Under the pieces are notes generated by a model. It saw only the letters and a list, made by a program, of their open reading frames with translations. It searched no databases and was not told the origin of the DNA. Positions 28,837-64,000 of a DNA stretch of 64,000 bases are shown piece by piece (position 1 is the first letter of the stretch; every line of letters begins with the position of its first letter). Position numbers and translations under genes: made by a program. Origin of the DNA: an uncultured Muribaculaceae bacterium (GTDB lineage: Bacteria > Pseudomonadota > Alphaproteobacteria > Rs-D84). The DNA lies in contig CAZUED010000002.1 in NCBI GenBank assembly GCA_964619545.1, forward strand, positions 1,253 through 65,252. The letters are read 5' to 3'.

Positions 28837-29430
28837 TTAAAAAGTATCCCACCAGTTTCTGAAAGGATTTCTAGTTTTAAATAGTTTTTCATCATCCGAA
28901 CCATAAGAGCCCTGACGAGTATTGCTAATGCTTGTACTGCCACCCCCATTATCACCTGACCCACCCCCGTTATTATTACTGCCACCGGCATTTCCAACAT
29001 CTTTATCATTTCCTTGGTTTCCAGGGCCAGTGTTTCCAACCCCACCGCCACTATTTCCATTAGAATTTCCAGCGCCAGAATCTGTAATTACATTGGATGA
29101 GTTACCACCGGCATTACTGCTGCTGGAATTATCAGATGATGAACTGGATGAAGAAGAGTTATCATTTGCACTTGATGATGAGTTACTACCAGCATTACTG
29201 CTGCTGGAATTATCAGATGCTGCGCTGGATGCAGCAGAATTACCACCAGCATTACTATTAGAGTTTGCATTAGATGATGAATTACCACCTGCGTTGCTGT
29301 TGCCATTAGAGCTGTTGGATGCCGCGTTTGAAGACGCTGAATTGCCATTACCATTGTTTGTAGCAATACTTGTGTTCGAGATAAATAAAGCTGTTAAACA
29401 TGATAGAAAAATAGGGTAAATTTTTTTCAT
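28837..29430 (-). CDS. Ser/Asn/Gly-rich low-complexity secreted protein
   Basis: Signal peptide MKKIYPIFLSCLTALFISNTSIA followed by about 150 aa of N/S/G/A repeats (NSSSSN, GGNSS...), ending in NWWDTF. The DNA contains degenerate tandem repeats, and large ORFs also appear in the other two frames, a sign of low-complexity repeat sequence. The minus strand is chosen because of the signal peptide. Confidence 0.45.
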   Translation of the reverse strand: MKKIYPIFLSCLTALFISNTSIATNNGNGNSASSNAASNSSNGNSNAGGNSSSNANSNSNAGGNSAASSAASDNSSSSNAGSNSSSSANDNSSSSSSSSDNSSSSNAGGNSSNVITDSGAGNSNGNSGGGVGNTGPGNQGNDKDVGNAGGSNNNGGGSGDNGGGSTSISNTRQGSYGSDDEKLFKTRNPFRNWWDTF

Positions 29431-30764: not shown

Positions 30765-30797
30765 CCCAAAAAAAAGCGCCCAAGGCGCGATTTTTTA
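30765..30797 (-). terminator. Rho-independent terminator downstream of the 174-aa gene
   Basis: GCGCC-CAA-GGCGC hairpin flanked by A8 and T6. On the minus transcript it is followed by a U-run. Confidence 0.65.
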
Positions 30798-31319
30798 ATA
30801 ACCCCCAACACAGCCCAGATAAAAATTACCCGAGCATTCTATAAAATTTTGGAATTTTGTTTGGTTTTTTCCAGTAAACAAGGCCAAAATAGTACCCGAT
30901 TCTGTCGCCAACATATCCGATACACTGACCCCAAAGCTGGTTGCTTTCTTGAAAAAGCCAGGCGTTGGAAAGATTTCCGCTGCAAAAAGTTTGTTCTGTT
31001 CCTTTGATTGAAGACGTTGTTCCTTTGCAATCACCATTAAAGTACAATCTTTGGATAATGAAATTTTCTCGCATATTTTTGCCTGACCACCCAATAGTTC
31101 CCCCCACCAACCAGATGTTCCAGAAAATACGGGATAATAAAGAAACTCATCAGGTGAATTCTTGAAAAAATCGGCCATTTCAAATTCCCCAGATACAACA
31201 CGGGGCATTTCACCATGTCGATCAGAAATTATTCGGCGCGCAGACTGGTATGCGTCCGAATCGCGAGCCCTTGACTTGGGCCAGAATAGTGACGGGGAAC
31301 TTAAAGTTTGATAACTCAT
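30795..31319 (-). CDS. Hypothetical soluble protein (174 aa) downstream of membrane paralog P1
   Basis: Clean ORF with no signal peptide, no TM and no recognisable motif. Co-directional with P1 and followed by its own terminator. Confidence 0.45.
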   Translation of the reverse strand: MSYQTLSSPSLFWPKSRARDSDAYQSARRIISDRHGEMPRVVSGEFEMADFFKNSPDEFLYYPVFSGTSGWWGELLGGQAKICEKISLSKDCTLMVIAKEQRLQSKEQNKLFAAEIFPTPGFFKKATSFGVSVSDMLATESGTILALFTGKNQTKFQNFIECSGNFYLGCVGGY

Positions 31320-31427: not shown

Positions 31428-32795
31428 TTACTTTTTTATTTCCTGCCACCACTTTTTCATATTGTCAGTGATTTTTTTCAGGTTATCTTTAGTATCTTTA
31501 TAAAGCTGGTCTGGTATTTTTACATTACCAAATAATGCCCCGGCCAATGCCGGTATGGCGTTCATAAACATCGCCAAAAACAGACCCAGCATAACAATAG
31601 TTATCAGACTTCCATTATTCATCATCAGTCCATCTATTAAAATATGTGAATCATTTTGCGCCAGTGCTGTCTGCAGGGCGCTGGCGCCTTGCCATTTACT
31701 AAACGCTGCGTTCAAGAATAATACCGAAAATGCAGTAAAAATCCCGACCATTGCAATGCCCAAAGTATTTTGGATTACTTGGTCTATAATTATCTGGATG
31801 TTTTTTTTGCCATCGGGCAAAATCATCCAAGGCTTTCCACTGACTGGATCTTGGAATAACCATGCCAGCAGCATCAACGGCAGCATAACCAGATTCATTC
31901 CCAGTTGGATAAATGTTTCCAGAAAGTAAAGCGGAACAGGCAGCAAAGCAAAGAAAAATAAAACTATAATTAAAAGCCCTGCCAAAAACATTGCTACATT
32001 AGGGAAAATTGGAATGCCGAAAATCAGCTTGTGCATATGTTGATCATTGAAAGACATATTCATAATTGTCCAGCCAGCAGTCATACCCAGGCCGGTCATC
32101 TGATGAATCTGACCAACCTGGCATGCCAGATTATGGCGCAACTTTGGTGAAAAAGCCCCATCAGTTGCGGCGCTTTTATCCGCGCTGGTCGGGTCCATAA
32201 CGGCAGTTGCGACCAGGCAGGATTCAAAAGAATACTCGTTGTCGGTACCTGCTGCGAACTTTCCATCCACCGCATGCGAAAGCGATAATCCTACATTAAA
32301 AATAGGCTCTATCGCGACATTAGTGATAAAGCGCGGAACTGGCATAGCCAGCAGTAATACAACAAAAGTCAGTTTTACCAGGTGTGTGCCCAACTTTCCT
32401 GAAAATCCCCATGCGTCTGGGCTTTTTGGTGTGCCCTCGATTCCCAGGTATCCTTTCAGGACTTCCCATCCAAAATATACAGCGGTCAGTCCAAATGCCA
32501 AAGGAATGCAGACAGCACCGATTGCAGAATAAATGCGTGGCAGAATGTTTGATATAACCAACATAATGTCGCCCATCATGCCACAAGACCAGCAGCTGGA
32601 AAAAAAGGAAAGCGCATCCGCCATATTTACCGGCGCCATAGAGCGATAGATAGAAAAGCCGGCTATTGCGACGCCGCCCCCAATGGCTCCGATGGCCAAT
32701 GGCGCAATTGCCCCAGCAGAAAGGGGCATGAAAGAAAGAAAGAGTATCCAAAATTTTTTAAGTCTGGTCACAACAGAATTATACCATAATTTCAT
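31428..32795 (-). CDS. Polytopic membrane protein, paralog 1 of a five-member family (VirB6/TrbL-like topology)
   Basis: About six TM helices, a large central hydrophilic loop after TM2 containing MPVPRFITNVAIEP, and a K-rich C-terminal tail. The N-terminal CWSCG motif aligns with the CWSCP of paralog 3. The ORF is open up to a TTG at 32819. The first ATG is 32795. Paralog alignment suggests the mature N-terminus may begin near MADALSFFSSCWSC (about 32624). Confidence 0.6.
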   Translation of the reverse strand: MKLWYNSVVTRLKKFWILFLSFMPLSAGAIAPLAIGAIGGGVAIAGFSIYRSMAPVNMADALSFFSSCWSCGMMGDIMLVISNILPRIYSAIGAVCIPLAFGLTAVYFGWEVLKGYLGIEGTPKSPDAWGFSGKLGTHLVKLTFVVLLLAMPVPRFITNVAIEPIFNVGLSLSHAVDGKFAAGTDNEYSFESCLVATAVMDPTSADKSAATDGAFSPKLRHNLACQVGQIHQMTGLGMTAGWTIMNMSFNDQHMHKLIFGIPIFPNVAMFLAGLLIIVLFFFALLPVPLYFLETFIQLGMNLVMLPLMLLAWLFQDPVSGKPWMILPDGKKNIQIIIDQVIQNTLGIAMVGIFTAFSVLFLNAAFSKWQGASALQTALAQNDSHILIDGLMMNNGSLITIVMLGLFLAMFMNAIPALAGALFGNVKIPDQLYKDTKDNLKKITDNMKKWWQEIKK

Positions 32796-32822
32796 CTGGC
32801 TTTTTATGCTATAATCCAAAGA

Positions 32823-34094
32823 ATGAAAAAAGCTCTTGTATTTTTTCTGGTAACGGCTTTCTGTTCGTTGGTATCGGTCCAGGCCAATGCGGCCTGGAGT
32901 ATTGTGGATTCGTTGGACATTTCGCCTTTTGTTCCAATTGTTTTGGACGCAATGATGTCGGTCGCTATGGCAGGTTATGAATTTTTTGTGGGTAAAGGTG
33001 ATGGAATTATTTACTTGTTTGTTTGGGGTTGGTTGGGTTGGTTTATCGCTTTATACCTTGTAAAAATGTATTTTCCACAAAATTGGTTGGACTTTTTCGG
33101 GATGAAGGGTGGACAGATGTGGAACAAACCATCTGCACTGAAGATTTCTGAAGATGTATTAAAGCCTTGCATTCGTGGCGTAATTGCAGCAGCGTTGTTG
33201 CTTCCCATAAAGCCGCAATACATTACAGGAATTATAGTTGATCCTTTCTTGCAATTTGGTGCGCTTTATACGCAAAGCATTTCTGACAATGTAAATCAGA
33301 TGAATTTAAGCGCTCCTGTGCAGAAAGAAAAAGTCATGTGTCCACCGGAAATTATTGATAAAGGATATATCTCGGCCGCCAGCTGCCAGTTCTTGGTTCA
33401 GCCTGTCGCAGAAATAACGCATGCAAACAATCAGGTTATAAAACGCGGGTTGGGTTTTGTTACCGCTGGATTGGCTGGCCTGATGACTTTGATTCCGCAC
33501 GGCGGTGGGGACATTATGAATTTGGTAACAGGTATTTTCTTGGTATTTGCATTTGTCGCCAGCAATTTCTTTATGGCCCTGTTGATAATTCAAGGAATTT
33601 TTGAATTTGGTATGGCGCTGATAATGTATCCGTTCAAGGTTTTAATGTTTGTTGCAAAAAATTCCAAAGATTGGGTAAATCCATGGCCCGCATTCGAAGG
33701 AATTATAAAAAGCCTGAAAAAACTAGTAATAACAATGATTGCTTGCGCGTTTGTTTTGGCGATAAATTTGGCAGCGATAAAGGCTTTGTTTAACTTTAAT
33801 CAATCAGCATTTGTTGTGGCTGCTGGTGGCAGTGCGTCCAGCAATGTTCCGGTTGTGGCGGCTGGCATCAATGGATTTGGGCAACACTCTATAATATGGC
33901 TGTCTGCAATGCTGACATTCTTTTTAATGTTCAAGATTTTCGAGCTGACCAAAAAGCAGTTATTGGATTATACAGGATCTGGTTCGGACGCTTTGTATAA
34001 AAAAGCAACCGGTGACGCCAAAAACGTATGGAGCAAAACAAACGAGTGGGGCCGCGGCGCGGCCAAGGTATTTGGCTGGATTAAGAAAAAATGA
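32823..34094 (+). CDS. Polytopic membrane protein, paralog 2 (signal peptide; VirB6/TrbL-like topology)
   Basis: Signal peptide MKKALVFFLVTAFCSLVSVQANA. TM pair, then the loop LPIKPQYITGIIVDPFLQFGALYTQSI, then 3-4 TM helices, then a K-rich tail (...GWIKKK). Shares the NSKDW...P.F motif with paralog 3. Confidence 0.65.
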   Translation: MKKALVFFLVTAFCSLVSVQANAAWSIVDSLDISPFVPIVLDAMMSVAMAGYEFFVGKGDGIIYLFVWGWLGWFIALYLVKMYFPQNWLDFFGMKGGQMWNKPSALKISEDVLKPCIRGVIAAALLLPIKPQYITGIIVDPFLQFGALYTQSISDNVNQMNLSAPVQKEKVMCPPEIIDKGYISAASCQFLVQPVAEITHANNQVIKRGLGFVTAGLAGLMTLIPHGGGDIMNLVTGIFLVFAFVASNFFMALLIIQGIFEFGMALIMYPFKVLMFVAKNSKDWVNPWPAFEGIIKSLKKLVITMIACAFVLAINLAAIKALFNFNQSAFVVAAGGSASSNVPVVAAGINGFGQHSIIWLSAMLTFFLMFKIFELTKKQLLDYTGSGSDALYKKATGDAKNVWSKTNEWGRGAAKVFGWIKKK

Positions 34095-35305
34095 ACGGAA
34101 TGATTGATTCTTTTGTTTCAAATTCAGTGCAGTGTTGGAGCTGCCCTGTCTTTGATCGCCTGTTCCAAATAATTTCTGCCGCGACATCTGCGGTTTATGG
34201 CAAGTTGTCTGTTCTGGCGGCTGTTTTGCTTTGTGTTTTTGTTGCGTTCTATGTTTTGTATTCGGTTATAACAAATCTGCGTGATGTAAAAAACATTGAT
34301 CCGACTTATCAGACTTACTTGAAGCCGGTAATGATAAACTCGCTGTTTGTAATCGCTATTTTGGGATTGGGGGTTATGGTGCCGCGGTTTATCACCCGGG
34401 TCAGTTTTGAGCCGGTTGCAGATATGACGCTTATCTATACCCAATCCATGCTGAATACAAACATGTCAGATGTAGCGCAAAAGGTTCAATACAATCCTGA
34501 AAAAATGCCTGATGACGGATTTTATCGTCCAGAGCTTCGCGATAAAATAATTCAGCTGATGAAAACCAGTATCACCCAATTCCAGTCAATGGTAAGGCTG
34601 GGGATGACTATTATGGATAATGCGTTTTCTTGGGATGTGTTGCTGGGGGTGGGTGCGCTGGTAAAACACATAATACTATTTTTTATGGGGCTTTATATTG
34701 CATGGGCCTTTTTCAAGCTGTTTATAAAATTCTGTTTTTATTTTGTTGATGTTGTAATAGACATGACTTTCTTTGCATTTTTCTTCCCATTTATGTTGGT
34801 CTTTTGGGTTTTCAGAAATTCTAAAAGTGCGGATTGGATAAAAAGTATGGGTGATAAAATAACACCAGCATTTTTCCAAAACTTAATAAACTCTATCGTG
34901 TCATTGGCGACGGTTGTTATAACCTATGTTGTGATAATAACCATAATGGCAAAGTTCCTGACGGGCTTTGGCAGCGGCAGCGCCGAAATGACGCGTCAAA
35001 TTATGGACGGCAGCATATTTGCAGGCGACCTGTCTGATGATAATCTGGCAATGATTACTTTGGGTGGCACATTGGTATTGGTCTATGTGGTTCAGTATCT
35101 GGCAGACAATATAAAGAATGTATCCAGAGAAATAACAGAAACTTTTGGAGTCAAAGACAGACATGAAGCCGGTGATTCTTTGGGTGAAGATGTATTAAAA
35201 ATAGGCAAAAACACATTTGACTTTGCGAAAAGCACAGGCAAAATTATTATGGCCGCAGCGACAGGTAAAGAGGCCGATAAAAAAGAAGAGTCAAGCAGCA
35301 AGTAA
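34091..35305 (+). CDS. Polytopic membrane protein, paralog 3
   Basis: N-terminal CWSCPVFDRLF motif. TM1-TM2, then loop VPRFITRVSFEPVADMTLIYTQSM, then four TM helices. C-terminal tail ...GKEADKKEESSSK. ATGA overlap with paralog 2. Confidence 0.65.
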   Translation: MNGMIDSFVSNSVQCWSCPVFDRLFQIISAATSAVYGKLSVLAAVLLCVFVAFYVLYSVITNLRDVKNIDPTYQTYLKPVMINSLFVIAILGLGVMVPRFITRVSFEPVADMTLIYTQSMLNTNMSDVAQKVQYNPEKMPDDGFYRPELRDKIIQLMKTSITQFQSMVRLGMTIMDNAFSWDVLLGVGALVKHIILFFMGLYIAWAFFKLFIKFCFYFVDVVIDMTFFAFFFPFMLVFWVFRNSKSADWIKSMGDKITPAFFQNLINSIVSLATVVITYVVIITIMAKFLTGFGSGSAEMTRQIMDGSIFAGDLSDDNLAMITLGGTLVLVYVVQYLADNIKNVSREITETFGVKDRHEAGDSLGEDVLKIGKNTFDFAKSTGKIIMAAATGKEADKKEESSSK

Positions 35306-36765
35306 TGTTAAAAAACAAACTTATCTTGACAGCGGTAAAGGCGGCGATGTGGATTATCGCGATTGGCATTGGCATCTGGTATTTGTCGGCCAGTATCAAT
35401 GGCGATTCTATTACTTACGCCAGCATGAATAGTTTCTTGCAGACCACAGGTGCATGCAAGGGCGCTGTTTGCGACATCAGTGCAACGAATGGATGCTTTC
35501 TTTGCCCGTATGTAAATCAATTGTTTAATGTAATTGGTACTGCGACAAATGATTTTTGGGATGCACTGGTTGGCAACCTATGGGTATTGATTGCCCTGGG
35601 CTTTATAATTTTTCTGTTTGTTCATACCTGGAAAACAATGGCAAAGGCGAATAAAGAAAACATTGCCGTGGGCGCAGGGGAACGTAAATTTGATTTCAAG
35701 GAATGGTTTGACGGAGTATGGAAGCAAGCTGCACGGGTTTTGGCAGTCGGCGCATTTTTGGGCGCGATAAGTTTTGGTGGCACAGGAGTTCTGCGAGCAG
35801 TATCAGACATCACCATACGCCCTGTGATGTATGTCGGGGCAGAATTGGCAATGGCTGCAACTGGCGAAGTTGGCGCGGCCCATTGCCCAGCGCTGGAATC
35901 GATGAGCGAATCAAATGTGGTTGGTCCTGCGTTAAAACCTTTTATGTGCGTGGTTGGAAATGCCAGCAATGTTATTCTGGCGGGTGCATCTGGCGGATTT
36001 GCATTGATGAATTTTTCATGGATGGGAATGGGCGGCGGGCTTTTTACTTGGATGGCTGGATTGGGGCTGGTCATAATGTTTTTAGTTATCGGATTTGGTT
36101 TGTTCTTTGACATTCTGAATGTAGTTTTCAGATTGGTATTTATAATTATTTTCTTACCCATAATTATCGCCAGCTATGCGTATGAAAATGTTTGGGGAGT
36201 ATTAAAGGGGGCAATCGGCAAATCGGTCGAGATGTTGGTAAATTGCGCGGTCAGGGTTGCCGCAATTACACTGAAAGTTTTAATAATTTACGCGGTTGTT
36301 TCTGTTGCAGCGGACGAGTATTTCCCAGGGCCGACAGATGGGTACTCGGCAATACTTCCGCCAGGTTTTGCTGGAATGCAAACCGCGCAAAATTCTGAAA
36401 ACCAAGTCGTTGCCCAAGTGTTTGCGAATTGCGAAAAAGTGTCAGTTGTGAATGGCGCGATGGACAAGAATTTATTCAAGGCTTGTTTTGACCGCCAAAA
36501 AGCAACGGCTGAAATTATGCATCCGGGGGCATTTGATTTTATGGGCAATGGTTGGGAATTCTTTATGCTGATGCTGGGTATATTCTTGTTGTATTTCTAT
36601 GTAGTTCAGAAAAAGATAGATGAAGTTTTAGTGGTGGGTAAAGACGGCAAAGACCCCATATTCAACATTGGCAGCCAGTTCAAGGAATTTGGTAAAAAAG
36701 TATGGGACATCCCAGCCCAGCTGACCAAGAAGATAACGGACGCAACGGAAAAAAATAAGGAATAA
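35305..36765 (+). CDS. Polytopic membrane protein, paralog 4
   Basis: N-terminal anchor followed by a Cys cluster (CKGAVC...CFLCPYVNQLF), aligned with the CWSCP region of paralog 3. Loop RAVSDITIRPVMYVGAELAMAATG. Multiple TM helices. Tail ...KKITDATEKNKE. Start overlaps the stop of paralog 3. Confidence 0.65.
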   Translation: MLKNKLILTAVKAAMWIIAIGIGIWYLSASINGDSITYASMNSFLQTTGACKGAVCDISATNGCFLCPYVNQLFNVIGTATNDFWDALVGNLWVLIALGFIIFLFVHTWKTMAKANKENIAVGAGERKFDFKEWFDGVWKQAARVLAVGAFLGAISFGGTGVLRAVSDITIRPVMYVGAELAMAATGEVGAAHCPALESMSESNVVGPALKPFMCVVGNASNVILAGASGGFALMNFSWMGMGGGLFTWMAGLGLVIMFLVIGFGLFFDILNVVFRLVFIIIFLPIIIASYAYENVWGVLKGAIGKSVEMLVNCAVRVAAITLKVLIIYAVVSVAADEYFPGPTDGYSAILPPGFAGMQTAQNSENQVVAQVFANCEKVSVVNGAMDKNLFKACFDRQKATAEIMHPGAFDFMGNGWEFFMLMLGIFLLYFYVVQKKIDEVLVVGKDGKDPIFNIGSQFKEFGKKVWDIPAQLTKKITDATEKNKE

Positions 36766-38069
36766 TGGCTTCGCTTCGTTTACATCTTAAAAAAATAATT
36801 GCACCAAGTATGGTGGCGGTCATATTTGCTTTTTGCACCTTGTTTTTTACAGGTTCATCTTATGCCGAAGCGAATGTTCCAACCACCAGCGACATTGGAA
36901 ATTATGGAGTTTGGGCGACCGAGCACAATCGGCAGCTTTTAATAAACAATCTTTCTACGGACATAAGTTCTTTCCAAGGCAATACCCAAAAGGCGATTGT
37001 TGGCGACTATGTTCCAGTAGAGGCGCGCGTGGGCAAAGCACTTATCGGCGCACTGGATCGGGTAGGCCAGGCATTGCAGCGCAGTCTTTTTGACTTTGTC
37101 CGAGTTCTGTTGGTTGCATTGTTTGCTTTTTGGTTGGCGTTCGAAGCATATAATTTAATTCAGTCAAAGGGTGATTCTAAAAAGCTGGCGCTGGACATTG
37201 CAAAAAAAACTATGCTGATTTCAATTTGGATTTGGGTGTTGGGAAATAATCCTGGTCAAATTTTTATGACAATTTTTGGACCGATCATTTCAGTTGGCAG
37301 CTATGCATCAGATTTAATACTGAATTCTATTACCAATGCTGCTGGGACCAGTTTACCAGATACTTGCAATGCTATACGAGGCTTCATAGGCTCGACCGAT
37401 AATAACTATACTGCTGATTTGTTGTGCATGCCGACCAGATTGTCCGGATTCTTTTATACCTGTGTGGCGGCAGGATTCAAATGGATGGCGGCGGGAATTG
37501 GTGAAAGCGCGCTTACCTTTGTTGCCGGCGCGGTCTTTGTTGTGATTTTCTCGATAAATATATGGAAGTTCGCATTACTGGCATTGGGTGTAATAACTGA
37601 TTTGTTCTTGGCGATTTTGCTTCTGCCATTTACGGCTATCCAAGAATGCTTTGGCAAAGGGACAAATCTGAAAGGTGTCGCTGGAAATATATTCAAGGCT
37701 TTTGCAGGAATTTTCAAGTCCGCCAGTTTAAGTGAGCAAATTATGCGTTTTATTAAGGCAGTGATATATTTTGTTGCCTTGGCATTGATGGCGGCAATTG
37801 GTGCAGCTTTGCTGGGCGGGGTAGTCAGCACTGATTTAGCGTCTGCGACGCCATCGGTACAAAGCGATAGTTTTATGTCGGTTTTGATAGTCGGGTGTCT
37901 GGTTGCGTATATGGTATCAAAATCATCAAAGTGGGCAGAAAATTTTGGTGGCAAAATAGATGATTCGTTCGGCAAGCAGGTTCAGGGCGATATGAAAAAG
38001 CTATGGGACAATACAAAAAAGCAGGTTTCAGACTGGCGGAAAATTTATCAGGAACAAAAGAAAAAATAG
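36765..38069 (+). CDS. Polytopic membrane protein, paralog 5 (signal peptide)
   Basis: Signal peptide, then a 100-aa periplasmic N-terminal region, then TM helices. Tail ...KKQVSDWRKIYQEQKKK. Start overlaps the stop of paralog 4. Confidence 0.6.
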   Translation: MASLRLHLKKIIAPSMVAVIFAFCTLFFTGSSYAEANVPTTSDIGNYGVWATEHNRQLLINNLSTDISSFQGNTQKAIVGDYVPVEARVGKALIGALDRVGQALQRSLFDFVRVLLVALFAFWLAFEAYNLIQSKGDSKKLALDIAKKTMLISIWIWVLGNNPGQIFMTIFGPIISVGSYASDLILNSITNAAGTSLPDTCNAIRGFIGSTDNNYTADLLCMPTRLSGFFYTCVAAGFKWMAAGIGESALTFVAGAVFVVIFSINIWKFALLALGVITDLFLAILLLPFTAIQECFGKGTNLKGVAGNIFKAFAGIFKSASLSEQIMRFIKAVIYFVALALMAAIGAALLGGVVSTDLASATPSVQSDSFMSVLIVGCLVAYMVSKSSKWAENFGGKIDDSFGKQVQGDMKKLWDNTKKQVSDWRKIYQEQKKK

Positions 38070-39174: not shown

Positions 39175-39175
39175 A

Positions 39176-40321: not shown

Positions 40322-40339
40322 ATAAAATCGGAGGTCTAA

Positions 40340-41401
40340 ATGAAAATCTGGATAGCCACAGGCGGAACAGGTGGACATATTTTCCCAGCACTCAGCGTGG
40401 CTGAGGAATTAGTTCGTCGTCATCACAGCGTTATAATTTCCAGCGATAGCCGTGGTATGGCTATGGTAAAAAAGAACAAGCCTGGGCGTGCCGGTACAGC
40501 ATTTATTTGGGCGGCTGGTGTAGGTGCGAAATCAAGTGTTCAACAAGCAATAGCGCTGTTCAAGATTGCAGCATCGGCAATCGCCTTGACTTTGCGGTTT
40601 ATGATTTTCAGACCAAACAGAGTAGTGGCGTTTGGTGGCTATTCGTCCGTGCCGGTTGTTTTAGCAGCAAAAATGTGGCATGTTCCAATCTTGCTGCACG
40701 AGCAGAATGCGCACATAGGTCGCGCAAATAAATTCACAGCACGCTGGATAAACACCCTTATGATAAGTTTTCCAAAAGTAAAAGGAATCGACGAATCAAA
40801 AACAAAAATTGTTTATACTGGATTGCCAGTGCGTAAAGAGTTTTTATCATCATCTCTTGTTGCGCCATCATCTTTTAATCTTTTGGTAACAGGTGGCAGC
40901 CTGGGCTCGCAAATTCTGGATGATGTTGTCCCAGATGCAGTTATGAAATTATCGGCTGCGATGCGGAAAAAATTATTCATAACCCAGCAAACGCGTCCTG
41001 AAAATGTTGCGCGGCTGCAAAGGTTTTATGCCAGTAATGGAATCAAGGCAAATGTTGTCGGATTTATAAACGATATGGCGGCGGCCCTTTCGTCGGCCGA
41101 ACTGGTTATCGGTCGCGCTGGCGCCAGCACGATTGCAGAATTGCAGGCCATTGGTCGACCAGCAATTCTTGTGCCATTGGGAATAAATCCAGATCAGGCA
41201 GCAAATGCCGAATCTTTTGCATCAACCGGTGGAGCGCTGGCAATAGAACAGAAAAGCTTTACAGCAAAATGGTTGTCAGCAGAATTAGAGGAACTTTTTG
41301 GCAATCCAGCAAGATTAAAGAAAATGGCTGACAAGGCAAAACTGACAAACAATGCTGTTAAAAATATAGTCGAAGAAGTTCTGAAAACAGAAAAAAATTA
41401 A
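40340..41401 (+). CDS. murG: UDP-GlcNAc:lipid I GlcNAc transferase MurG
   Basis: GGTGGH N-terminal motif (TGGTGGHIFPALSVAEEL) and the GT28 C-terminal domain. GGAGG SD. Confidence 0.85.
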   Translation: MKIWIATGGTGGHIFPALSVAEELVRRHHSVIISSDSRGMAMVKKNKPGRAGTAFIWAAGVGAKSSVQQAIALFKIAASAIALTLRFMIFRPNRVVAFGGYSSVPVVLAAKMWHVPILLHEQNAHIGRANKFTARWINTLMISFPKVKGIDESKTKIVYTGLPVRKEFLSSSLVAPSSFNLLVTGGSLGSQILDDVVPDAVMKLSAAMRKKLFITQQTRPENVARLQRFYASNGIKANVVGFINDMAAALSSAELVIGRAGASTIAELQAIGRPAILVPLGINPDQAANAESFASTGGALAIEQKSFTAKWLSAELEELFGNPARLKKMADKAKLTNNAVKNIVEEVLKTEKN

Positions 41402-49761: not shown

Positions 49762-50498
49762 AACGATACAAACTGAATCTTGAGTATGACGGAACAGATT
49801 TGATTGGTTGGCAGGAAAATCGTCAAGGTCCATCGGTTCAGTCCTTGGTTCAGGGCGCAATCAAAAGCTTTTGTCAGACGGACGCAGATGTTATTGCTGC
49901 CGGACGCACTGACGCTGGCGTGCACGCTTATTCTATGACGGCACATGTGGATTTGCCGGAATCCAATCCTGAAACAATTAAACGGGCATTAAATTTTTAT
50001 CTAAATGATTCGTCTGTATCTGTTTTGGATTGCGTGCTTGTTTCAGATGAATTTCATGCCAGGTTTTTATGTGTTCGCCGAAATTACAGATACATTGTTC
50101 TGAATCGCGGCGCAAAGCCCGCATTGGATAAAAACCGAGTTTGGTGGATACCCCAAAAATTAAACATTGATGCCATGCGCGCTGCAGCCGAAAAATTAAA
50201 AGGCAATCATGACTTTACCAGTTTTCGCGCGGCCGAGTGTCAGGCAAAAAGTCCGATAAAGACCCTGGATGAAATAAAAATAACGACAGATGGCGATTTA
50301 ATTTATTTTGATTTTTCTGCGCGGTCTTTTCTGCATCACCAGGTTAGAAATATGGTTGGGACCCTGGTTGAAATAGGGTTGGGAAAACCATTAGACATTG
50401 ATGAAATTTTCGCCGCGAAAAATCGCAGTGCGTCTGGACCTAATGCGCCTGCATCTGGTCTTTATTTTGTTTCGGCCGAATATGCCACCAACGATTAG
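49758..50498 (+). CDS. truA: tRNA pseudouridine(38-40) synthase TruA
   Basis: RYKLNLEYDGTDLIGWQ with the catalytic Asp context (AAGRTDAGVHA). Confidence 0.85.
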   Translation: MKRYKLNLEYDGTDLIGWQENRQGPSVQSLVQGAIKSFCQTDADVIAAGRTDAGVHAYSMTAHVDLPESNPETIKRALNFYLNDSSVSVLDCVLVSDEFHARFLCVRRNYRYIVLNRGAKPALDKNRVWWIPQKLNIDAMRAAAEKLKGNHDFTSFRAAECQAKSPIKTLDEIKITTDGDLIYFDFSARSFLHHQVRNMVGTLVEIGLGKPLDIDEIFAAKNRSASGPNAPASGLYFVSAEYATND

Positions 50499-52329
50499 CC
50501 GTAATATATTCAACACGTCCAGTTTTATAAATCACTAATGGCCCGTGCAGAATTCTTGCATGGCAGTCTTTCCCAGCGTCTATATCCAAATAAGAAATTA
50601 TGAAATCATTTTCATTGCACATTTTTCCGATGTTGTTTAACAGCGGAATAAATTTTTGAGTATAAGCCAATGACCATTTTTCAGTCTGAATAATACATAA
50701 TCCTTTTTCGCATTTTATGCGTTTGTTTGGGGTACCTGTTTTTTCAAAGTTATTCTGCTTCCATGCGTCAAAGGCAAAGTAATTATTGCTGGATTTATTT
50801 CGGTTAAAATGCAATTCATCATTTTGAATAATTGCAATCAGTTCGTGATTAGCGCTGGCATAAAAAATTGGTTTTGGTTTTGTTATAGTCAAGATTACTG
50901 ACAACATATATAAAACTGCGAACAGGGGAAATTTTAATTTTTTGTTTTTTATTAAAATCAGACAAACCAGTCCAATAACCATCATAATCAAAGCGGATGC
51001 CGGTATGTTTGGGATTTGTATTTGGGCATATGGAAATGTCGTAATCCAGTCTGCTATACCCAGCGTCCAGTTATAAACTGCGTCCGCGTAAGATGTCAGT
51101 CCCAGCATAGTCAGCGGCATTATCAAAAGTGAAAAAATCGGCAAACATATCAAATTACCCAGCAGACTATAAATCTGGAGTGTATGAAAATGGTATGCAA
51201 TAAAAGGTATTGTGAAAAGTGTTGCGATAAAGGTTGTTAAAATCATAATCTTTATAGCACGCCATACTTTCATAGGAACTGAGAGTTTTTCATATTTTGT
51301 GTCGCCGAAAAACCAAATCAGTCCGAAAATTGCGGAAAATGAAAGTTGAAAACCAGGCTGGACCAGATAATGAGGATTTGTTATTAAAAGTGCCGCGAAT
51401 ACAAGTGCCGCATTTCGCATGGTGAAAACATTTCGCCCCAGTATGAATGCCGCGAACATTAAACTTGTTGTCAGAAAGGCCCTTTGTGTTGCAACATCTG
51501 CGCCCGATAAAAACAAATAAAATGATAACCCAATAAATGAGAAAACCATCGCGGGATAACGCGCAGATGTTCTTTTTGTTACCCATGGAAGCAGTCGGAA
51601 TAAAAAATAAAACAATGCAAAAAACCATCCACCAACAAGTGTTATATGAAATCCGCTAATAGAAAAAACATGGGAAATACCAGCCGTCTTCCAAGCATCT
51701 ATTTCTTTATCTGTCAGTGCATGTTTGTATCCCAAAACAAGCGTATCAAAAAGTTTAGAATCAAATTTATTATGCAAATAATTGCGAAAAGTTGTAATGC
51801 CCGTTTCTGTACCATCATTATTGATAGTTAAATCTGATACAAATCCAGTTGCAGTAAGGCCATCAAAATATGCCCACTCGGCCGCGTCAAATCCACCAGG
51901 CGTATCGGCAGGGCTGGGCGGAAAAAGCGTTGCATTTGCAATTATATTTGCACCGATTTCTGGAATTGGAATTTCGTTGGACACAGATAACCTGTAAATT
52001 GCCCCAGTGGCGGAATCTTGCAAGAATAAACGCGCTTTGTCCGGTGTATAGTCTATATTTTTCACGACCGCCACAATTTCAATGTCGCGTTTTGGGCTTG
52101 TAATGTCGGGTATGTCAATCAGTCGGACATAAGCAGTGGAATAAAAAAATCCAAACAAGAATACAAAAACTGGGGCAATAGATTTTTTCCGAAATACGAA
52201 AAAGTTCGCTGCGCACAGAATCGAAATAATTAAAGGAAATGCAATGGCAGGTTCAAACGGGAATGCGAAATAAACAGCAATCCCTGCGCAGAAAGCAAAA
52301 AGACTGAACATTAAATTCATCCTGAACAA
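50440..52329 (-). CDS. comEC: ComEC/Rec2-family competence membrane protein
   Basis: DUF4131-like N-terminus and a competence domain with multiple TM helices (SGFHITLVGGWFFALF). No C-terminal metallo-beta-lactamase domain is visible. Confidence 0.7.
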   Translation of the reverse strand: MFRMNLMFSLFAFCAGIAVYFAFPFEPAIAFPLIISILCAANFFVFRKKSIAPVFVFLFGFFYSTAYVRLIDIPDITSPKRDIEIVAVVKNIDYTPDKARLFLQDSATGAIYRLSVSNEIPIPEIGANIIANATLFPPSPADTPGGFDAAEWAYFDGLTATGFVSDLTINNDGTETGITTFRNYLHNKFDSKLFDTLVLGYKHALTDKEIDAWKTAGISHVFSISGFHITLVGGWFFALFYFLFRLLPWVTKRTSARYPAMVFSFIGLSFYLFLSGADVATQRAFLTTSLMFAAFILGRNVFTMRNAALVFAALLITNPHYLVQPGFQLSFSAIFGLIWFFGDTKYEKLSVPMKVWRAIKIMILTTFIATLFTIPFIAYHFHTLQIYSLLGNLICLPIFSLLIMPLTMLGLTSYADAVYNWTLGIADWITTFPYAQIQIPNIPASALIMMVIGLVCLILIKNKKLKFPLFAVLYMLSVILTITKPKPIFYASANHELIAIIQNDELHFNRNKSSNNYFAFDAWKQNNFEKTGTPNKRIKCEKGLCIIQTEKWSLAYTQKFIPLLNNIGKMCNENDFIISYLDIDAGKDCHARILHGPLVIYKTGRVEYITANRWWHIRPKQNKDQMQAH

Positions 52330-59413: not shown

Positions 59414-60981
59414 TGGTTCGATATTTGGATAATAATAATTCTGGGTTTAATTCTTGGCTTGCATCAAAAAACACAGATAATAAGAAATCAAAACTTACAG
59501 GTTTTCTTATTTGGTTGGCAATTTTTTTGCTGGCTTGGTGGGCTTTTTCTGCTTGGTTTACACCAAAAAATAAATCAGAAATCAAAAATCAAAATTCAGA
59601 TTCCACAATTGTCGCAGAAAGCGTTTCTAATGTTCCCGCACATGTTTTGACTTCGGAAAAACTGAATGCAAAAGTCCAGGGTTTACGTATTTCCGAAATT
59701 TCGTTGAATAATTTTACCGATAAAATCGATGGAGCCGATCCAGTTAAACTGTTGAATGGGAATATGGAATTTGCCGAGGTTGGAATCCTTGCCAATGGCA
59801 CAGCCGCGCCAACTATGGACACAAAATGGGGAAGCGCTGGCGTGATGAAATGGCGCAATGTTGATGGCGTTGAATTTTCTCGTAACATCGAAGTTAAAGA
59901 CTATGTAATAACAATTAATGACGAAATCAAAAATAACACCAAACGTGACTTTTCTGTATCGCCTTATGCACGTATAGTTCGCTCCAAAGGTTCAGATTCT
60001 ATGGGGGTTGCAGCTGGTGGCATTGCATTCGCTGCGGACAGCATAGAACGCGAGTCCTGGAAGTCAGTTGGAAAAAAATCTTATGTTTGGACCACTTCTG
60101 CGGGTTTTGCTGGATTCGAAGAGCAATACTGGCAGACAATCGTATCGGTAAATTCCCCAGATCAAACCATAAAAATAAAGCCCTTGGCTGACGGACGTTT
60201 GCAGTCTGAAACCAGCGCTTCGGCAGTTCAAGTTCCAGCTGGCAAAACAATAATTTTGACCACAAACTTGTTCGCAGGCCCCAAAACCCCGGATGTATTA
60301 AAAACTGCCGCATCGTCAATTTCAGGAATAGACAGAACGATAGATTATGGCTGGTTCTGGTTTTTATCGCGCCCATTTTTATGGTCGTTTAACGCGCTTT
60401 ATGGATTGGTATTAAACTATGGTTTGGTAATTATTTTGTTGACCATTGGCATCAGAATTTTAATGTGGCCTCTTACCAGAAAATCTTTTATAGGTATGGC
60501 TGCGATGCAGAAAATGCAACCAGAAATGCAACGTATACAAAAACTTTATGGGGATGATAAAGTCCGTATGCAGGCCGAAATGATGAAGCTGTATAAAAAC
60601 AGCAAGACTTCACCAATGTCCGGATGTCTGCCCATGTTGTTGCAGATTCCTATTTTCTTTGCGCTGTATAAGGCATTATTGATTGCGGTGCCACTTCGCC
60701 ATGCAGGTTTTTTATGGCTGAATGATTTGGCGGTAATGGATCCTTACTTTATTCTGCCGATTTTGATGGGCGCAACAATGTGGTGGCAGCAACATTTGCA
60801 GACCGCAGCAATAAATACAGATCCAAACGACCCAATGGCCCAGACCCAAAAAATGATGAAGTGGATGCCAGTTATCTTCACTGCTTTATTTGCATGGATG
60901 CCATCAGGATTAGTATTGTATTGGACGATTTCCAATTTGTTTGGAATTGGTCAAATGTGGTGGATTAAAAAAAATAATTAA
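59413..60981 (+). CDS. yidC: Membrane protein insertase YidC
   Basis: N-terminal TM, a large periplasmic domain, and the conserved C-terminal 5-TM core (PLRHAGFLWLNDL; Q...PMQK). Confidence 0.9.
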   Translation: MVRYLDNNNSGFNSWLASKNTDNKKSKLTGFLIWLAIFLLAWWAFSAWFTPKNKSEIKNQNSDSTIVAESVSNVPAHVLTSEKLNAKVQGLRISEISLNNFTDKIDGADPVKLLNGNMEFAEVGILANGTAAPTMDTKWGSAGVMKWRNVDGVEFSRNIEVKDYVITINDEIKNNTKRDFSVSPYARIVRSKGSDSMGVAAGGIAFAADSIERESWKSVGKKSYVWTTSAGFAGFEEQYWQTIVSVNSPDQTIKIKPLADGRLQSETSASAVQVPAGKTIILTTNLFAGPKTPDVLKTAASSISGIDRTIDYGWFWFLSRPFLWSFNALYGLVLNYGLVIILLTIGIRILMWPLTRKSFIGMAAMQKMQPEMQRIQKLYGDDKVRMQAEMMKLYKNSKTSPMSGCLPMLLQIPIFFALYKALLIAVPLRHAGFLWLNDLAVMDPYFILPILMGATMWWQQHLQTAAINTDPNDPMAQTQKMMKWMPVIFTALFAWMPSGLVLYWTISNLFGIGQMWWIKKNN

Positions 60982-61646
60982 ATAATTTTGCTCAGCGCGG
61001 CGACCGCAGCGGTTTCTGCGCGCAAAATTGTTTTTCCCAGTGAAATTCCAATTGCGCCCGCTGCATCCAGTTCGGAAAATTCGTTTTCAGAAAATCCTCC
61101 TTCGGGACCAACAAGCAATGTGCAATTTGCAAAGTTCAAAGTGCAATTATTTTGTTTTGTTTTATCATGAGCAAATCTTTCATCTGCAAATACTAAATCT
61201 TTTTTATCTAATTCGGAAAATTTAATTGGTTGTTCTAATTTCGGAATGCTGTTGCGACCTGATTGCTCGGACGCTTCAATAATGATTTTTTTTATCCTTC
61301 CCCATTTCGGAAAATGTTCAGTCGTGCGCTCGGTAATAACTGGTTGCAAAACCGCAACACCCATCTGAGTTGTTGCGTTCAGCATTTCTTCCATTCTGGA
61401 TTGCTTTATCGGCGCAAAGCAAAACACAATTTTATTACCGGGGTCTTTATGACTCGTAATTTCAACAATTTCCAATTTGTCTTTTTTGACAGATGCCGAA
61501 AACTCAACACCATCATTGAATACCAGGCATTTATCTGTGCGCATTACGCGCGTTAAATAGTGGGCTTGGTCAACGGAAAGCGGTATTTGTTTTCCAACTT
61601 CCAATTTTTCATTTATAAAGATTCTGGGTAAGTTTTGCATTATCAA
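60978..61646 (-). CDS. rsmE: 16S rRNA m3U1498 methyltransferase RsmE
   Basis: PUA-like N-terminus and the SPOUT C-domain (LLVGPEGGFSENE). Confidence 0.75.
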   Translation of the reverse strand: MIMQNLPRIFINEKLEVGKQIPLSVDQAHYLTRVMRTDKCLVFNDGVEFSASVKKDKLEIVEITSHKDPGNKIVFCFAPIKQSRMEEMLNATTQMGVAVLQPVITERTTEHFPKWGRIKKIIIEASEQSGRNSIPKLEQPIKFSELDKKDLVFADERFAHDKTKQNNCTLNFANCTLLVGPEGGFSENEFSELDAAGAIGISLGKTILRAETAAVAALSKII

Positions 61647-61675
61647 ACACCAATTTTTTTGATATAATATATTTA

Positions 61676-63889
61676 ATGGCTGAAAAATTCAACATTTTAT
61701 CGTTTTCGGGTAAGGGCAAGGGTTTGAAAATCTTTGACTCGTCCGCGTACAAGGACCACGAAAAGGCCCCAATGGGGCGTATGTTTTGGAATATGCGATA
61801 CAAAGTTATCGTATGGCTGTCTTGCTTTTTCGTATTTATTTTGGCGTTTCCGATTGAGCATTTGTGGCGATATGGATGGTCGCCCGCATCTGCAAAATGG
61901 ATTGGTATTTATTTTACAAACTTTTTATACAGTGTTGGTTTATCTGTTTTTGCAGAGATTCCAGAATGGTTAAGTCGCGCTGCAACTCAGCCAGACATTG
62001 CAGCTATTGCCCCATTGCTGCCTATTGCGATATATTTTGTTCTGACGGACGAAACTTTATTGAAAGAATTTAATCCGTTTGGCAAAGATGTTTTGAAAGA
62101 AGAATCATCCCGCAAAGCAAATGATGAAGACATCAAAAAAATGGGATTAATGGATGGCTTTATGATGGTGTTGGGATACTGGAAGAAAAAACCATTGATG
62201 ATGAAGGAAACGCTGTCTGCGCTTTGTTTAGCGCCCCCCGGGACCGGTAAAACCCAAGGTGTTGTATTGCCGACAATCTTTGAGTGCAACAATGTTTCGA
62301 TGATTATCAATGATCCAAAGCCCGAATTAAAACAGCAATCGTCGGCCTATCGTGCGCAGAATGTTGGGCCTGTGTTCATTATGAATTGGGCGGGACAAGA
62401 TGATCCAATGGCTGGAATTTATTACCCTTCATGGAATCCATTATCGCCATCCCATGTGCCATTTATTACCGAAGAGCGTGATTTGTATATTGATTCTATT
62501 TGCGCGACATTGATTGCGGATAAAACCAGTTCGTCGGCAGATCCGCACTGGACGATTTCTGGACGCGCGGCATTGTCAGGCTTGATAAACTTTATGGTGT
62601 CCAAGATTGATAAAGCCAAAGCGGACGAATATTTTTATGCGCGTTTGCAATCAGGCGAATTTGATGCCGAAGATGCGGCGTTGCTGGGCGAGTATTACAC
62701 AATGATGAATGACCCAAATGCTGATGCTGCACGGTATGCGTTGGCAAATGGTCAGCTGAATGCAATGAATTATGTTCATGTTGGAACATGGGCGATGATT
62801 CCGGACGACTGGGTTGGTCGCGAAGCATCAATGTCCATGATTCTGGATTGGCTGAATAAAAGCCAGGTGCGAATTGCGGAAGAGTTGGAAAATCGACGCA
62901 AGCAAGGCGATCAAATGGTTATGATGGCCGATCCTATGAAAGATTTGTTCCAAAATGCTGTGAATGAGGCATTACAATACGGATACTCGCACCGTGCGGT
63001 TTTGGAATTGACACAACTTGCAAATACTCCGGATAAAGAACGCGGTTCTATTATTTCAACCGTTCTGGCGGGACTTTCTATTTTCAGAAATGCGGCCGTT
63101 CGCAATCGCACCAGCCACAGCGACTTCCACTTCAGCGATTTGCGTGGAATGATTGATCCACGTGATGGCAAAGTAAAGCCAGTATCCGTTTACCTTTCTA
63201 TTAATCAAGTTGATTCCGAAGCATTAAATCCAATAACTGCAATCTTTATTGAATTGATGTCCAGGTTCTTGATAGCAAATGCCCCCGATGGCGAACACGC
63301 AGGGCAAAAGTTGGGCCCATATCCAGTGTTATTTGTTTTGGACGAGATGCCAAAAATGCAAAAGATGCAGGCGATTATCCAGGGTCCCGACATAGGTCGT
63401 GGTCAGCAAGTTTCGTATTTGATTATCGGTCAGGACATTGCGCAAATTCGTGAAAAATATGGCGCGGACGCGGCGCAGACTATCATTTCTACGACTGCGG
63501 CAAAGGTTATCTTGCGCCAGAATAATATGGAAACTGCAGAAATGTTTTCCAAGATGATGGGTGAAAAAGTAGAATCTAAAAAGAGCAAAGGCCCAGATGG
63601 TAAAGAAACTGAAAGCACGGACAGAAAGCCGCTTTACAGCTCTATGGACATCATGAAACTTGATTCGAAAAAGCAGCTGGTTATATTCCAGGGTTATTAC
63701 AATCGCCCGATCGAGGCAGATTACAGCCCGGCCTATGCGGACGAGACTTTGCAAAAGTACAGAAAGTTGGGCGAAAGTCCGCCATTACCAGAATTCTTGG
63801 TTGCATCCCATCATGCTGCTATGCGGTATCGTGGCACTCCTCGTCAATATGACCCAATGACAAAGACCATAAAGGATTTGGCGGCGTGA
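61676..63889 (+). CDS. virD4: Type IV secretion coupling protein (VirD4/TraG family ATPase)
   Basis: Two N-terminal TM helices. Walker A LCLAPPGTGKTQGVVLPTIF (cf. VirD4 LVVAPTRAGKGVGVVIPTLL). Walker B VLFVLDEMPKMQKMQ (cf. VLFLLDEFKHLGKL). C-terminal SYLIIGQDIAQIREKYG region (cf. MFIIQSLSALSGTYDEAG). An alternative start is M33 (61772). Confidence 0.75.
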   Translation: MAEKFNILSFSGKGKGLKIFDSSAYKDHEKAPMGRMFWNMRYKVIVWLSCFFVFILAFPIEHLWRYGWSPASAKWIGIYFTNFLYSVGLSVFAEIPEWLSRAATQPDIAAIAPLLPIAIYFVLTDETLLKEFNPFGKDVLKEESSRKANDEDIKKMGLMDGFMMVLGYWKKKPLMMKETLSALCLAPPGTGKTQGVVLPTIFECNNVSMIINDPKPELKQQSSAYRAQNVGPVFIMNWAGQDDPMAGIYYPSWNPLSPSHVPFITEERDLYIDSICATLIADKTSSSADPHWTISGRAALSGLINFMVSKIDKAKADEYFYARLQSGEFDAEDAALLGEYYTMMNDPNADAARYALANGQLNAMNYVHVGTWAMIPDDWVGREASMSMILDWLNKSQVRIAEELENRRKQGDQMVMMADPMKDLFQNAVNEALQYGYSHRAVLELTQLANTPDKERGSIISTVLAGLSIFRNAAVRNRTSHSDFHFSDLRGMIDPRDGKVKPVSVYLSINQVDSEALNPITAIFIELMSRFLIANAPDGEHAGQKLGPYPVLFVLDEMPKMQKMQAIIQGPDIGRGQQVSYLIIGQDIAQIREKYGADAAQTIISTTAAKVILRQNNMETAEMFSKMMGEKVESKKSKGPDGKETESTDRKPLYSSMDIMKLDSKKQLVIFQGYYNRPIEADYSPAYADETLQKYRKLGESPPLPEFLVASHHAAMRYRGTPRQYDPMTKTIKDLAA

Positions 63890-64000
63890 AAACCAGACTT
63901 GCAAAGTTCATAGCTGATTCCGGACTTGCGTCGCGTAGGGTTGCAGAAAAGCTGATTACAGACGGCAAAGTTTTTGTAGATGGCGTTCGCATTGATACCC
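63886..64000 (+). CDS. Pseudouridine synthase (RsuA/RluB family), N-terminal S4 domain. Partial: runs off the right edge.
   Basis: VKTRLAKFIADSGLASRRVAEKLITDGKVFVDGVRI is an S4 RNA-binding domain. GTG start overlaps the virD4 stop by 4 nt. Confidence 0.55.
   Translation, partial: MKTRLAKFIADSGLASRRVAEKLITDGKVFVDGVRIDT

Follow-up and report, generated by a model that had tools for sequence, protein, structure and literature searches.

The gene at positions 61676 to 63889 of the window, by which we mean the whole 64,000-nt stretch of contig CAZUED010000002.1 analysed here, encodes a genuine type IV coupling protein (T4CP). The window belongs to Candidatus Enterousia (order Rs-D84), a gut alphaproteobacterium. 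We think it likely, though well short of certain, that this T4CP is the functional coupling ATPase of a chromosomal, vertically inherited type IV secretion system (T4SS) of the VirB/VirD4 type that has been split into islands among housekeeping genes. Three islands would make up the system: the solitary T4CP gene, divergent from rsmE and with its own extended -10 promoter; a six-gene module with five VirB6-like paralogues, 23.6 kb away in the window; and, in relatives, VirB3, VirB4 and a secreted HExxH protein, 5 to >30 kb away.

Identity and fold of the coupling protein

The gene and its landmarks are as follows (aa, amino acids):
61676..63889, plus strand: T4CP of the VirD4/TraG/TrwB family; open reading frame (ORF) of 737 aa with an ATG start and its stop within the coordinates
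61799..62053, plus strand: N-terminal membrane domain; two transmembrane helices (aa ~42-62 and ~106-126) separated by a ~45-aa loop, from hydropathy (peaks at aa 42-60 and 106-124) and from long helices in the AlphaFold2 (AF2) model
62231..62254, plus strand: Walker A motif (P-loop) APPGTGKT, aa 186-193; K192 invariant
62630..62794, plus strand: ~55-60 aa (aa ~319-373) inserted into an enlarged all-alpha domain and specific to the clade; helical, pLDDT ~90
63326..63346, plus strand: Walker B motif VLFVLDE, aa 551-557; D556 invariant

Three Pfam profiles recognise the protein above their cutoffs: PF02534 (178 bits, 4e-52; cutoff 20.1), PF12696 (77.7 bits, 1e-21; cutoff 22) and PF10412 (66.4 bits, 3e-18; cutoff 20.5). 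A preliminary description of the window, made from the sequence alone, had assigned the gene to the VirD4/TraG family and proposed PF02534 and PF10412 as a check; both scored above cutoff, and FtsK or another AAA family was not the best match by profile or by fold. Compared as a single sequence with the PDB sequences, the protein gave no phmmer match at E<=0.01, while the profile of its clade matched Cagbeta (1e-13) and TrwB (2e-4). When the AF2 model (pLDDT 86, pTM 0.74) was compared with the PDB by Foldseek, the best match was Cagbeta (8DOL; E 9e-19, target-normalised template-modelling score 0.63-0.68), followed by TrwB (E 1e-12, score 0.71) and then DotL, all three above HerA and VirB4. 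The fold seen in the model and in these matches is TrwB-like, a RecA-like nucleotide-binding domain interrupted by an all-alpha domain. Cagbeta (Cag5, PDB 8DOL) and TrwB (1E9R/1E9S/1GKI) are the nearest solved structures by both profile and fold and share this two-domain architecture, but they are only 12-16% identical to the T4CP in structural alignments. Since Pfam, clade-profile and fold searches all place T4CPs first, and not FtsK or another AAA protein, the family assignment stands. An identity as FtsK, HerA or VirB4 was considered and rejected, the T4CP structures being ahead by 6-12 orders of magnitude in Foldseek E-value.

Within NCBIfam the protein falls below every equivalog cutoff. 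Its best score is with the Gram-positive CD1115 family (158.6 vs 250); other scores are 118.9 vs 728 for PRK13897, 71 vs 681 for PRK13850 and 99 vs 586 for the TraG model PRK13880. It is an ordinary though divergent member of a known family, already named by NCBI's pipeline.

Both Walker motifs, with the Walker A lysine and the Walker B acidic pair intact, and the two N-terminal transmembrane helices of the preliminary description are present, as judged by motif, hydropathy and model. The Walker A had also been called non-canonical, and this did not hold: APPGTGKT fits the pattern [AG]x4GK[ST], is invariant in the Enterousia clade and is present in three plasmid T4CPs (loci L082, L083 and L091). 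Because APPG[TA]GKT is shared with plasmid T4CPs and the canonical pattern fits, we read the motif as a subfamily trait and not as an anomaly. The corresponding P-loop of Cagbeta is APTRSGKG, the classical VirD4/Cagbeta loop. Some distant chromosomal relatives of the T4CP (alignment rows P0134, P0136, P0140 and P0146) carry degenerate P-loops (AAPGNNKT or GSTNEGKT), with LDD or LDN where the Walker B has LDE. These relatives may be catalytically impaired coupling proteins.

The insertion is found in all chromosomal members of the clade down to 31% identity and is absent from the three nearest plasmid T4CPs. It lies in an all-alpha region that spans roughly aa 265-490, longer than the all-alpha domain of TrwB, which we take to be ~115 aa. 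The all-alpha domain of TrwB, VirD4 and PcfC contributes to substrate specificity. Since the insertion lies in this very domain, it is reasonable to suppose that the substrate range of the T4CP may have changed.

Locus, inheritance and host lineage

The T4CP gene is surrounded by the following elements:
60978..61646, minus strand: rsmE, 16S rRNA m3U1498 methyltransferase family (PF04452); divergent from the T4CP gene across a spacer of ~30 bp
61640..61668, plus strand: promoter-like site TTATCA-17 nt-TATAAT with TG extension; its -10 ends 7 nt 5' of the T4CP ATG; best consensus match in the region (10/12)
63886..64000, plus strand: 5' end of a pseudouridine synthase gene, RluB-type (S4 + PseudoU_synth_2), with a GTG start; 4-nt GTGA overlap with the T4CP stop

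The preliminary description had this arrangement right, both in the divergence from rsmE and in the overlap with the pseudouridine synthase gene. It was also right that the T4CP gene is solitary: VirB4 is not found within the 64-kb window, virB8-B11 do not flank the gene, and its flanking genes are rsmE and rluB-like genes in ~80 species-level loci. In essentially all of these the divergent rsmE-T4CP pair is kept, while almost all other neighbours are reshuffled housekeeping genes; the pseudouridine synthase gene, for example, lies 3' of the T4CP gene in the sub-clade of the window, and most other species have it upstream of rsmE. Other uncultured Alphaproteobacteria encode T4CP relatives that are 35-49% identical, and these genes, too, stand alone among housekeeping genes. 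Apart from the membrane-protein array treated below, the remaining content of the window is chromosomal housekeeping: lptFG/lptD, parAB, metG, der, a sigma factor, leuS, gyrA, mraY-ftsW-murG, a MarR-TolC-AcrB operon, rmuC, def-fmt-truA, comEC, pyk, recR, ksgA, lspA and yidC.

Twelve species share, without any change, the extended -10 element TGnTATAAT, whose end lies 7-9 nt ahead of the ATG of the T4CP gene (window 61640-61675; ~9960-10000 in L002-L070); this indicates a promoter dedicated to the gene. The region that holds the element contains no Shine-Dalgarno sequence ahead of the T4CP, and the mRNA is probably leaderless or nearly so.

Selection on the gene is strongly purifying, with a dN/dS of 0.03-0.05 and no stop codons or disruptions in six orthologues. 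These figures bear on the notion that the T4CP is all that is left of an integrated conjugative element or of a plasmid, a relic with no role or one that serves only transfer of the element. Its closest characterisable relatives do sit in conjugative-type operons with MobA/MobL relaxases, and its GC content (0.444; 0.456 at third codon positions) is slightly above that of the window (0.415), but gyrA has a similar value (0.451). The rsmE context is the same in ~80 species and in deeper relatives, and a relaxase, an integrase, a repeat boundary and an adjacent tRNA are all absent from the window, where the tRNAs are >30 kb off. The preliminary description had asked for a check of nearby conjugative genes. 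We extended it to the clade DNA, 2.9 Mb in 172 loci, which holds ~458 families of >=100 aa compared with ~820-960 genes per genome. In these 2.9 Mb, tblastn searches for MobA/MobL relaxases, Rad52, plasmid primases and DnaB-like proteins returned only the housekeeping topoisomerase I, and so no MobA/MobL homologue. Because the rsmE context is kept in ~80 species, dN/dS is low and no relaxase or integrase is nearby, we conclude that the T4CP gene belongs to the vertically inherited core and does not form part of an integrated conjugative element. A remnant of such an element we regard as highly improbable, and this reading, like that of a pseudogene, was rejected on synteny, selection and gene content.

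Homologues of the T4CP number in the hundreds. They are full-length and 64-96% identical, and come from metagenome-assembled genomes labelled Alphaproteobacteria, 'Rickettsiales' or Candidatus Enterousia, recovered from human, ruminant, chicken and termite guts; one record that bears the gene is a single 716-kb chromosome (OZ246409.1). Enterousia (order Rs-D84) genomes are ~0.75-1.0 Mb in size with ~820-960 genes each and lack the TCA cycle, respiration and standard importers; the bacteria occur widely in the guts of humans, ruminants, birds and termites, and their way of living is unexplained (PMC12306168). The searchable literature makes no mention of a T4SS in Enterousia or Rs-D84. Four of the records (L002, L006, L035 and L064) are titled 'uncultured Muribaculaceae bacterium' and carry Enterousia-type genes, with T4CPs 71-96% identical and the same synteny. 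Their labels, that of OZ246409.1 among them, look wrong.

The VirB3-VirB4 and VirB6-like islands

As probes for the rest of the T4SS we used the VirB proteins of related plasmid operons. In one Enterousia locus (L022) a VirB4 homologue lies 5.6 kb from the T4CP gene and is preceded by a VirB3-like ORF. This VirB4 is 32% identical to plasmid VirB4 (E 1e-123). The Enterousia VirB4 family (PF03135) is >=78% identical among the 120 best matches, where NCBI annotation gives only 'hypothetical', and 80 further metagenome loci extend it to 64% identity; the latter include termite-gut samples with relatives in the sub-clade of the window. VirB3 (PF05101, 30.3 bits vs a cutoff of 23.9) is paired with VirB4 in 75/85 loci. 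The order of the island is invariant, namely a 229-aa SufBD-like protein, VirB3, VirB4 and V0, with one VirB4 per locus and never a VirB6-like gene, and on contig JAAVBP010000004.1 the VirB3-VirB4 island and the T4CP gene lie 32 kb apart. A dispersed T4SS exists in the Enterousia lineage, VirB3 and VirB4 being located elsewhere on the same chromosomes in relatives.

The two outer genes of the island are of some interest in themselves. V0 is a secreted protein of ~208 aa with a conserved HEDEH (HExxH) motif and no family match (L084 12414-13040; L022 4282-5025). Its gene overlaps the VirB4 stop codon, an arrangement of translational coupling, in nearly every one of 75 VirB4 loci, and sometimes occurs as a tandem duplicate. 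V0 may be a periplasmic metallo-hydrolase in the role of VirB1. The 229-aa protein (cluster V3; L084 8503-9183 and equivalents) has a weak SufBD-core match and is always located between ychF and virB3; it may belong to the VirB3-VirB4 island.

The second island lies within the window:
30795..31319, minus strand: 174-aa soluble protein that travels with the five-paralogue module; no family match
31428..32819, minus strand: VirB6-like paralogue 1, 463 aa, polytopic, CxxC; paralogy to the ORF at 34091 at E 4e-13
32823..34094, plus strand: VirB6-like paralogue 2, 423 aa; paralogy at E 2e-5 to 8e-5
34091..35305, plus strand: VirB6-like paralogue 3, 404 aa, the one modelled; family 48-93% identical across the genus, all 'hypothetical'
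35305..36765, plus strand: VirB6-like paralogue 4, 486 aa, CxxC; weak paralogy, E 8e-4 to 2e-3
36765..38069, plus strand: VirB6-like paralogue 5, 434 aa; paralogy at E 2e-5

The array of membrane proteins at 31428-38069 ends 23.6 kb upstream of the T4CP gene. Its five ORFs are distant paralogues (E 4e-13 to ~1e-3) with 6-8 hydrophobic segments each; an N-terminal CxxC is present in three of them and is invariant in the family of the ORF at 34091. The six-gene unit, i.e. the 174-aa protein and the five paralogues, is also found in a second species (L096), where its flanks differ. In sequence searches these proteins stay anonymous. Neither PF04610 or any other Pfam profile (E<=10) nor NCBIfam VirB6/TrbL or any other model (E<=1) matched the five paralogues, the 174-aa protein or the other no-hit ORFs; the family profile matched nothing among the PDB sequences; and blastp, phmmer and hhalign comparisons of the paralogues, V0, V3 and cluster V21 with VirB2-B11 of four related plasmid operons gave no match.

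A link to VirB6 appears at the level of fold. The AF2 model of the ORF at 34091 is of moderate quality (pLDDT 63, pTM 0.58). When it was searched by Foldseek against 350,542 chains, chains of the R388 stalk complex (TrwJ/VirB5-TrwI/VirB6) took ranks 1-5, 7, 10 and 32, with a probability of 0.87-1.0 over ~326 aligned columns but E-values of 0.015-0.15; the next unrelated matches had a probability of <=0.3. We take the matched chains of ~260-270 residues to be TrwI/VirB6, the Foldseek output naming the entry and not the subunit. Like the array proteins, R388 TrwI/VirB6 (PDB 7O3V, 8RT9 and 8RTD) is a polytopic, all-helical inner-membrane protein. The identity is 11-14%, however, and the array differs in its N-terminal CxxC and in having five paralogues in a module of their own with no adjacent vir gene. 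'VirB6-like' is, on the basis of this model, our best reading of the array, and applies to the fold only. Thus, where the preliminary description had spoken of a VirB6-like array, the five polytopic paralogues are there and the modelled one is VirB6-like in fold, but no TrbL/VirB6 profile matches any of them at E<=10.

The array is directly followed by mraY-ftsW-murG (38098-41401), with no murE, murF or ftsI upstream, which means that the dcw cluster is disrupted at this point. In L096, mraY-ftsW-murG is inverted and separated from the array.

Affinities, undetected components and probable substrate

The nearest annotated T4CPs belong to plasmid VirB/D4 (MPF_T) systems on megaplasmids of Erythrobacter aureus (NZ_CP031358.1), Microvirga (pMVF16-3, NZ_CP069357.1) and Sphingosinicella (p1, NZ_CP035502.1). 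They are 31-34% identical to the Enterousia T4CP over ~77-80% of its length (E ~1e-78 to 1e-86) and share with it the APPG[TA]GKT P-loop and the Walker B. The best matches of the Enterousia VirB4 (32% identity, E 1e-123) come from the same complete virB2-B11/T4CP operons as those of the T4CP (33% identity, E 1e-85). On the megaplasmids the T4CP gene closes a contiguous virB2-B3-B4-B5-B6-B8-B9-B10-B11 operon that lies beside a MobA/MobL relaxase and replication genes, whereas in Enterousia it stands alone on the chromosome, without a relaxase, and its product carries the ~55-60-aa all-alpha insertion that the plasmid proteins lack. From these sequence affinities, a plasmid-type VirB/D4 system is the apparent origin of the Enterousia one.

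The preliminary description had proposed a scattered, rvh-like T4SS. In the rvh system, islet A holds virB3-virB4a-virB6a-e, B virB2, C virB9a-B8a-B7-B8b-B9b-B10-B11-virD4, D virB1 and E virB4b; there are five VirB6 paralogues and no VirB5, virB4, virB8 and virB9 are duplicated, and the dN/dS of D4 is 0.06 (PMC2653234). The likeness is considerable. Both are chromosomal systems scattered in islets and vertically inherited in a reduced-genome alphaproteobacterium, with strong purifying selection on D4, and in Enterousia, too, there are a VirB3-VirB4 pair and five paralogues, putatively VirB6-like, with no VirB5 detected. The layout is different, however: rvh keeps virD4 with virB8-B11 and virB3-virB4a with virB6a-e, while in Enterousia all three units are separate, and virB8-B11 and the duplicated virB4/8/9 were not found in the 2.9 Mb, about half a gene complement.

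We therefore weighed whether the system might be a true rvh orthologue, derived by vertical descent from a common ancestral vir locus, with the T4CP as an RvhD4 displaced from its islet. The scattered islets, the VirB3-VirB4 pair, the five VirB6-like paralogues, the failure to detect VirB5 and the similar selection on D4 (dN/dS 0.06 vs 0.03-0.05) agree with such a descent, as does the labelling of several of the metagenome-assembled genomes as 'Rickettsiales bacterium'. Moreover, among the NCBIfam models named VirD4, VirB4 and VirB3, the PRK13897/13898/13899 series, which we presume to be derived from Rickettsia, scores best. But these scores are far under the equivalog cutoffs (119 vs 728 for VirD4 and 214 vs 1050 for VirB4), and a much closer affinity, of ~300-400 bits, exists to plasmid VirB/D4 systems of Sphingomonadales and Hyphomicrobiales. 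The T4CP lies outside any virB8-B11 islet, the VirB6-like genes do not adjoin virB3-B4, and the VirB6-like proteins are 400-490 aa long and lack the PF04610 signature. We consider orthology with rvh improbable. Membership in rvh is not claimed, because the layout differs on both counts and the sequence affinity is with plasmid MPF_T systems; 'rvh-like' describes the architecture only. We regard the system as domesticated, dispersed and of the effector type, and as one that probably works in the manner of rvh. Of the preliminary proposal, then, the dispersal is borne out by VirB3-VirB4 lying elsewhere on the chromosomes of relatives, but the rvh layout is not, and the nearest relatives are plasmid VirB/D4 systems (32-33% identity).

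A census of virB genes had been suggested as well. For this we built small hidden Markov models (HMMs) from four related plasmid operons and ran them against all ORFs of the clade DNA, first of 1.7 Mb and then of the full 2.9 Mb, where they detected VirB4 (~600 bits), the T4CP (~460 bits) and VirB3. The census thus yielded VirB3 and VirB4, but VirB2, B5, B8, B9, B10 and B11 went undetected in this sample. Their absence is suggestive but not established, because the sample covers about half a gene complement.

In the mechanism that we favour, that of a dispersed VirB/VirD4-type system, the T4CP would be anchored in the inner membrane by its two transmembrane helices and would form a hexameric ATPase like TrwB and Cagbeta. 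It would recognise substrates through the enlarged all-alpha domain with the clade-specific insertion and pass them to an inner-membrane channel energised by VirB4 and lined by VirB6. The substrates would be protein effectors delivered to a partner cell and not plasmid DNA. Protein effectors are most likely because no relaxase was found in the 2.9 Mb and because the genome, of ~0.7-1 Mb, is without respiration, TCA cycle and standard nutrient importers.

Several points weigh against this mechanism. The HMMs for VirB2, B5, B8, B9 and B10, and also that for plasmid-type B6, match nothing in the 2.9 Mb of clade DNA, and the VirB11 HMMs match only a PilB-type ATPase of ~545 aa that belongs to a type IVb pilus cluster. 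Since VirB2, B5, B8, B9, B10 and B11 are undetected, a complete envelope-spanning channel is not demonstrated. VirB3 and VirB4 were seen in relatives, including the termite-gut metagenomes with sub-clade relatives, and not in the genome of the window itself. The VirB6 assignment comes from a model of pLDDT 63 and Foldseek E-values of 0.015-0.15, with no profile or hhalign support, and the Foldseek output is silent on which stalk subunit each matched chain is.

The same gaps would also fit a different kind of machine, confined to the inner membrane, in which the outer-membrane core complex and VirB11 would have been truly lost and the T4CP, VirB3/VirB4 and the VirB6-like proteins, perhaps with the HExxH hydrolase, kept. 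This would amount to a Gram-positive-style T4SS in a diderm, which either uses another envelope conduit, such as the co-occurring R64-like type IVb pilus, or carries DNA or protein over the inner membrane and no further. It is notable in this respect that the VirB2/5/8/9/10 HMMs are empty in 2.9 Mb, yet VirB4 and the T4CP score 460-630 bits; that VirB11 profiles find only the pilus ATPase; that precomputed Pfam annotations around the islands contain no VirB8/9/10; and that, among NCBIfam models, the T4CP scores best with Gram-positive CD1115. Type IVb pilus genes also recur near the T4CP and VirB4 islands, and in distant relatives a prepilin peptidase gene abuts that of the T4CP. On the other hand, only ~458 gene families were sampled, compared with ~820-960 genes, and the VirB6-like proteins illustrate that components can diverge past profile detection. 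The pilus proximity may be chance, because it is lpxK/lpxC, and not VirB4, with which these genes keep a stable linkage. To our knowledge, no diderm runs a T4SS without VirB7/9/10. We therefore see a stripped-down T4SS without the VirB7/9/10 core or VirB11 in Enterousia and allied uncultured Alphaproteobacteria, possibly with an R64-like pilus for cell contact, as conceivable but rather unlikely.

Returning to the dispersed VirB/VirD4-type system, the T4CP, VirB3/VirB4 and a VirB6-like family expanded five-fold, which profile databases do not recognise, are under strong purifying selection across the genus. This points to a contact-dependent transfer machine in the core biology of these uncultured bacteria and is a hint that they inject something into neighbouring cells. 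For an alphaproteobacterium of reduced genome, this is apparently the second instance of a T4SS that has fragmented into an 'archipelago' while VirB6 proliferated, and it probably arose independently of rvh. The coupling protein is now encoded on its own, and its domain for substrate recognition is altered. The interest of the system lies in a dispersed system not described before, in the unrecognised VirB6-like family and in what both imply for an abundant, uncultured gut lineage of reduced genome. Were the inner-membrane machine to prove true, it would be a T4SS architecture without precedent in the literature and the first molecular clue to contact-dependent exploitation of other cells by tiny-genome gut bacteria.

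The R64-like type IVb pilus cluster of the relatives contains PilO (PF06864), the ~545-aa T2SSE ATPase, a T2SSF platform protein and a small prepilin, and also holds proteins of 437 and 461 aa whose N-termini resemble those of prepilins. It was found at L084 19390-22421, at L086/L087 19163-22415, at ~16.7-21.4 kb in L056-L058, and in L014-L017 and L075. In many species 7-9 kb separate the cluster from VirB4, and in some it lies within 10 kb of the T4CP gene, the stable link being that to lpxK/lpxC. In two distant members with a solitary T4CP, a prepilin peptidase (Peptidase_A24) is encoded directly downstream of the T4CP or <=9 kb away (L095 2690-3394; L094 483-1220). The window itself holds ComEC (50440-52329, minus strand) and ComF (19074-19805, plus strand), which together with the pilus genes of relatives would form a conventional DNA uptake system, independent of the T4SS. 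A link of the T4CP to the type IVb pilus or to competence was considered and not adopted, the pilus being tied to lpxK/lpxC and not to VirB4, and ComEC/ComF and the pilus forming a canonical competence set.

Elsewhere in the window, a 197-aa secreted protein composed nearly entirely of low-complexity Ser/Asn/Gly sequence is encoded at 28837-29430 on the minus strand, adjoining a predicted outer-membrane beta-barrel protein (27789-28820).

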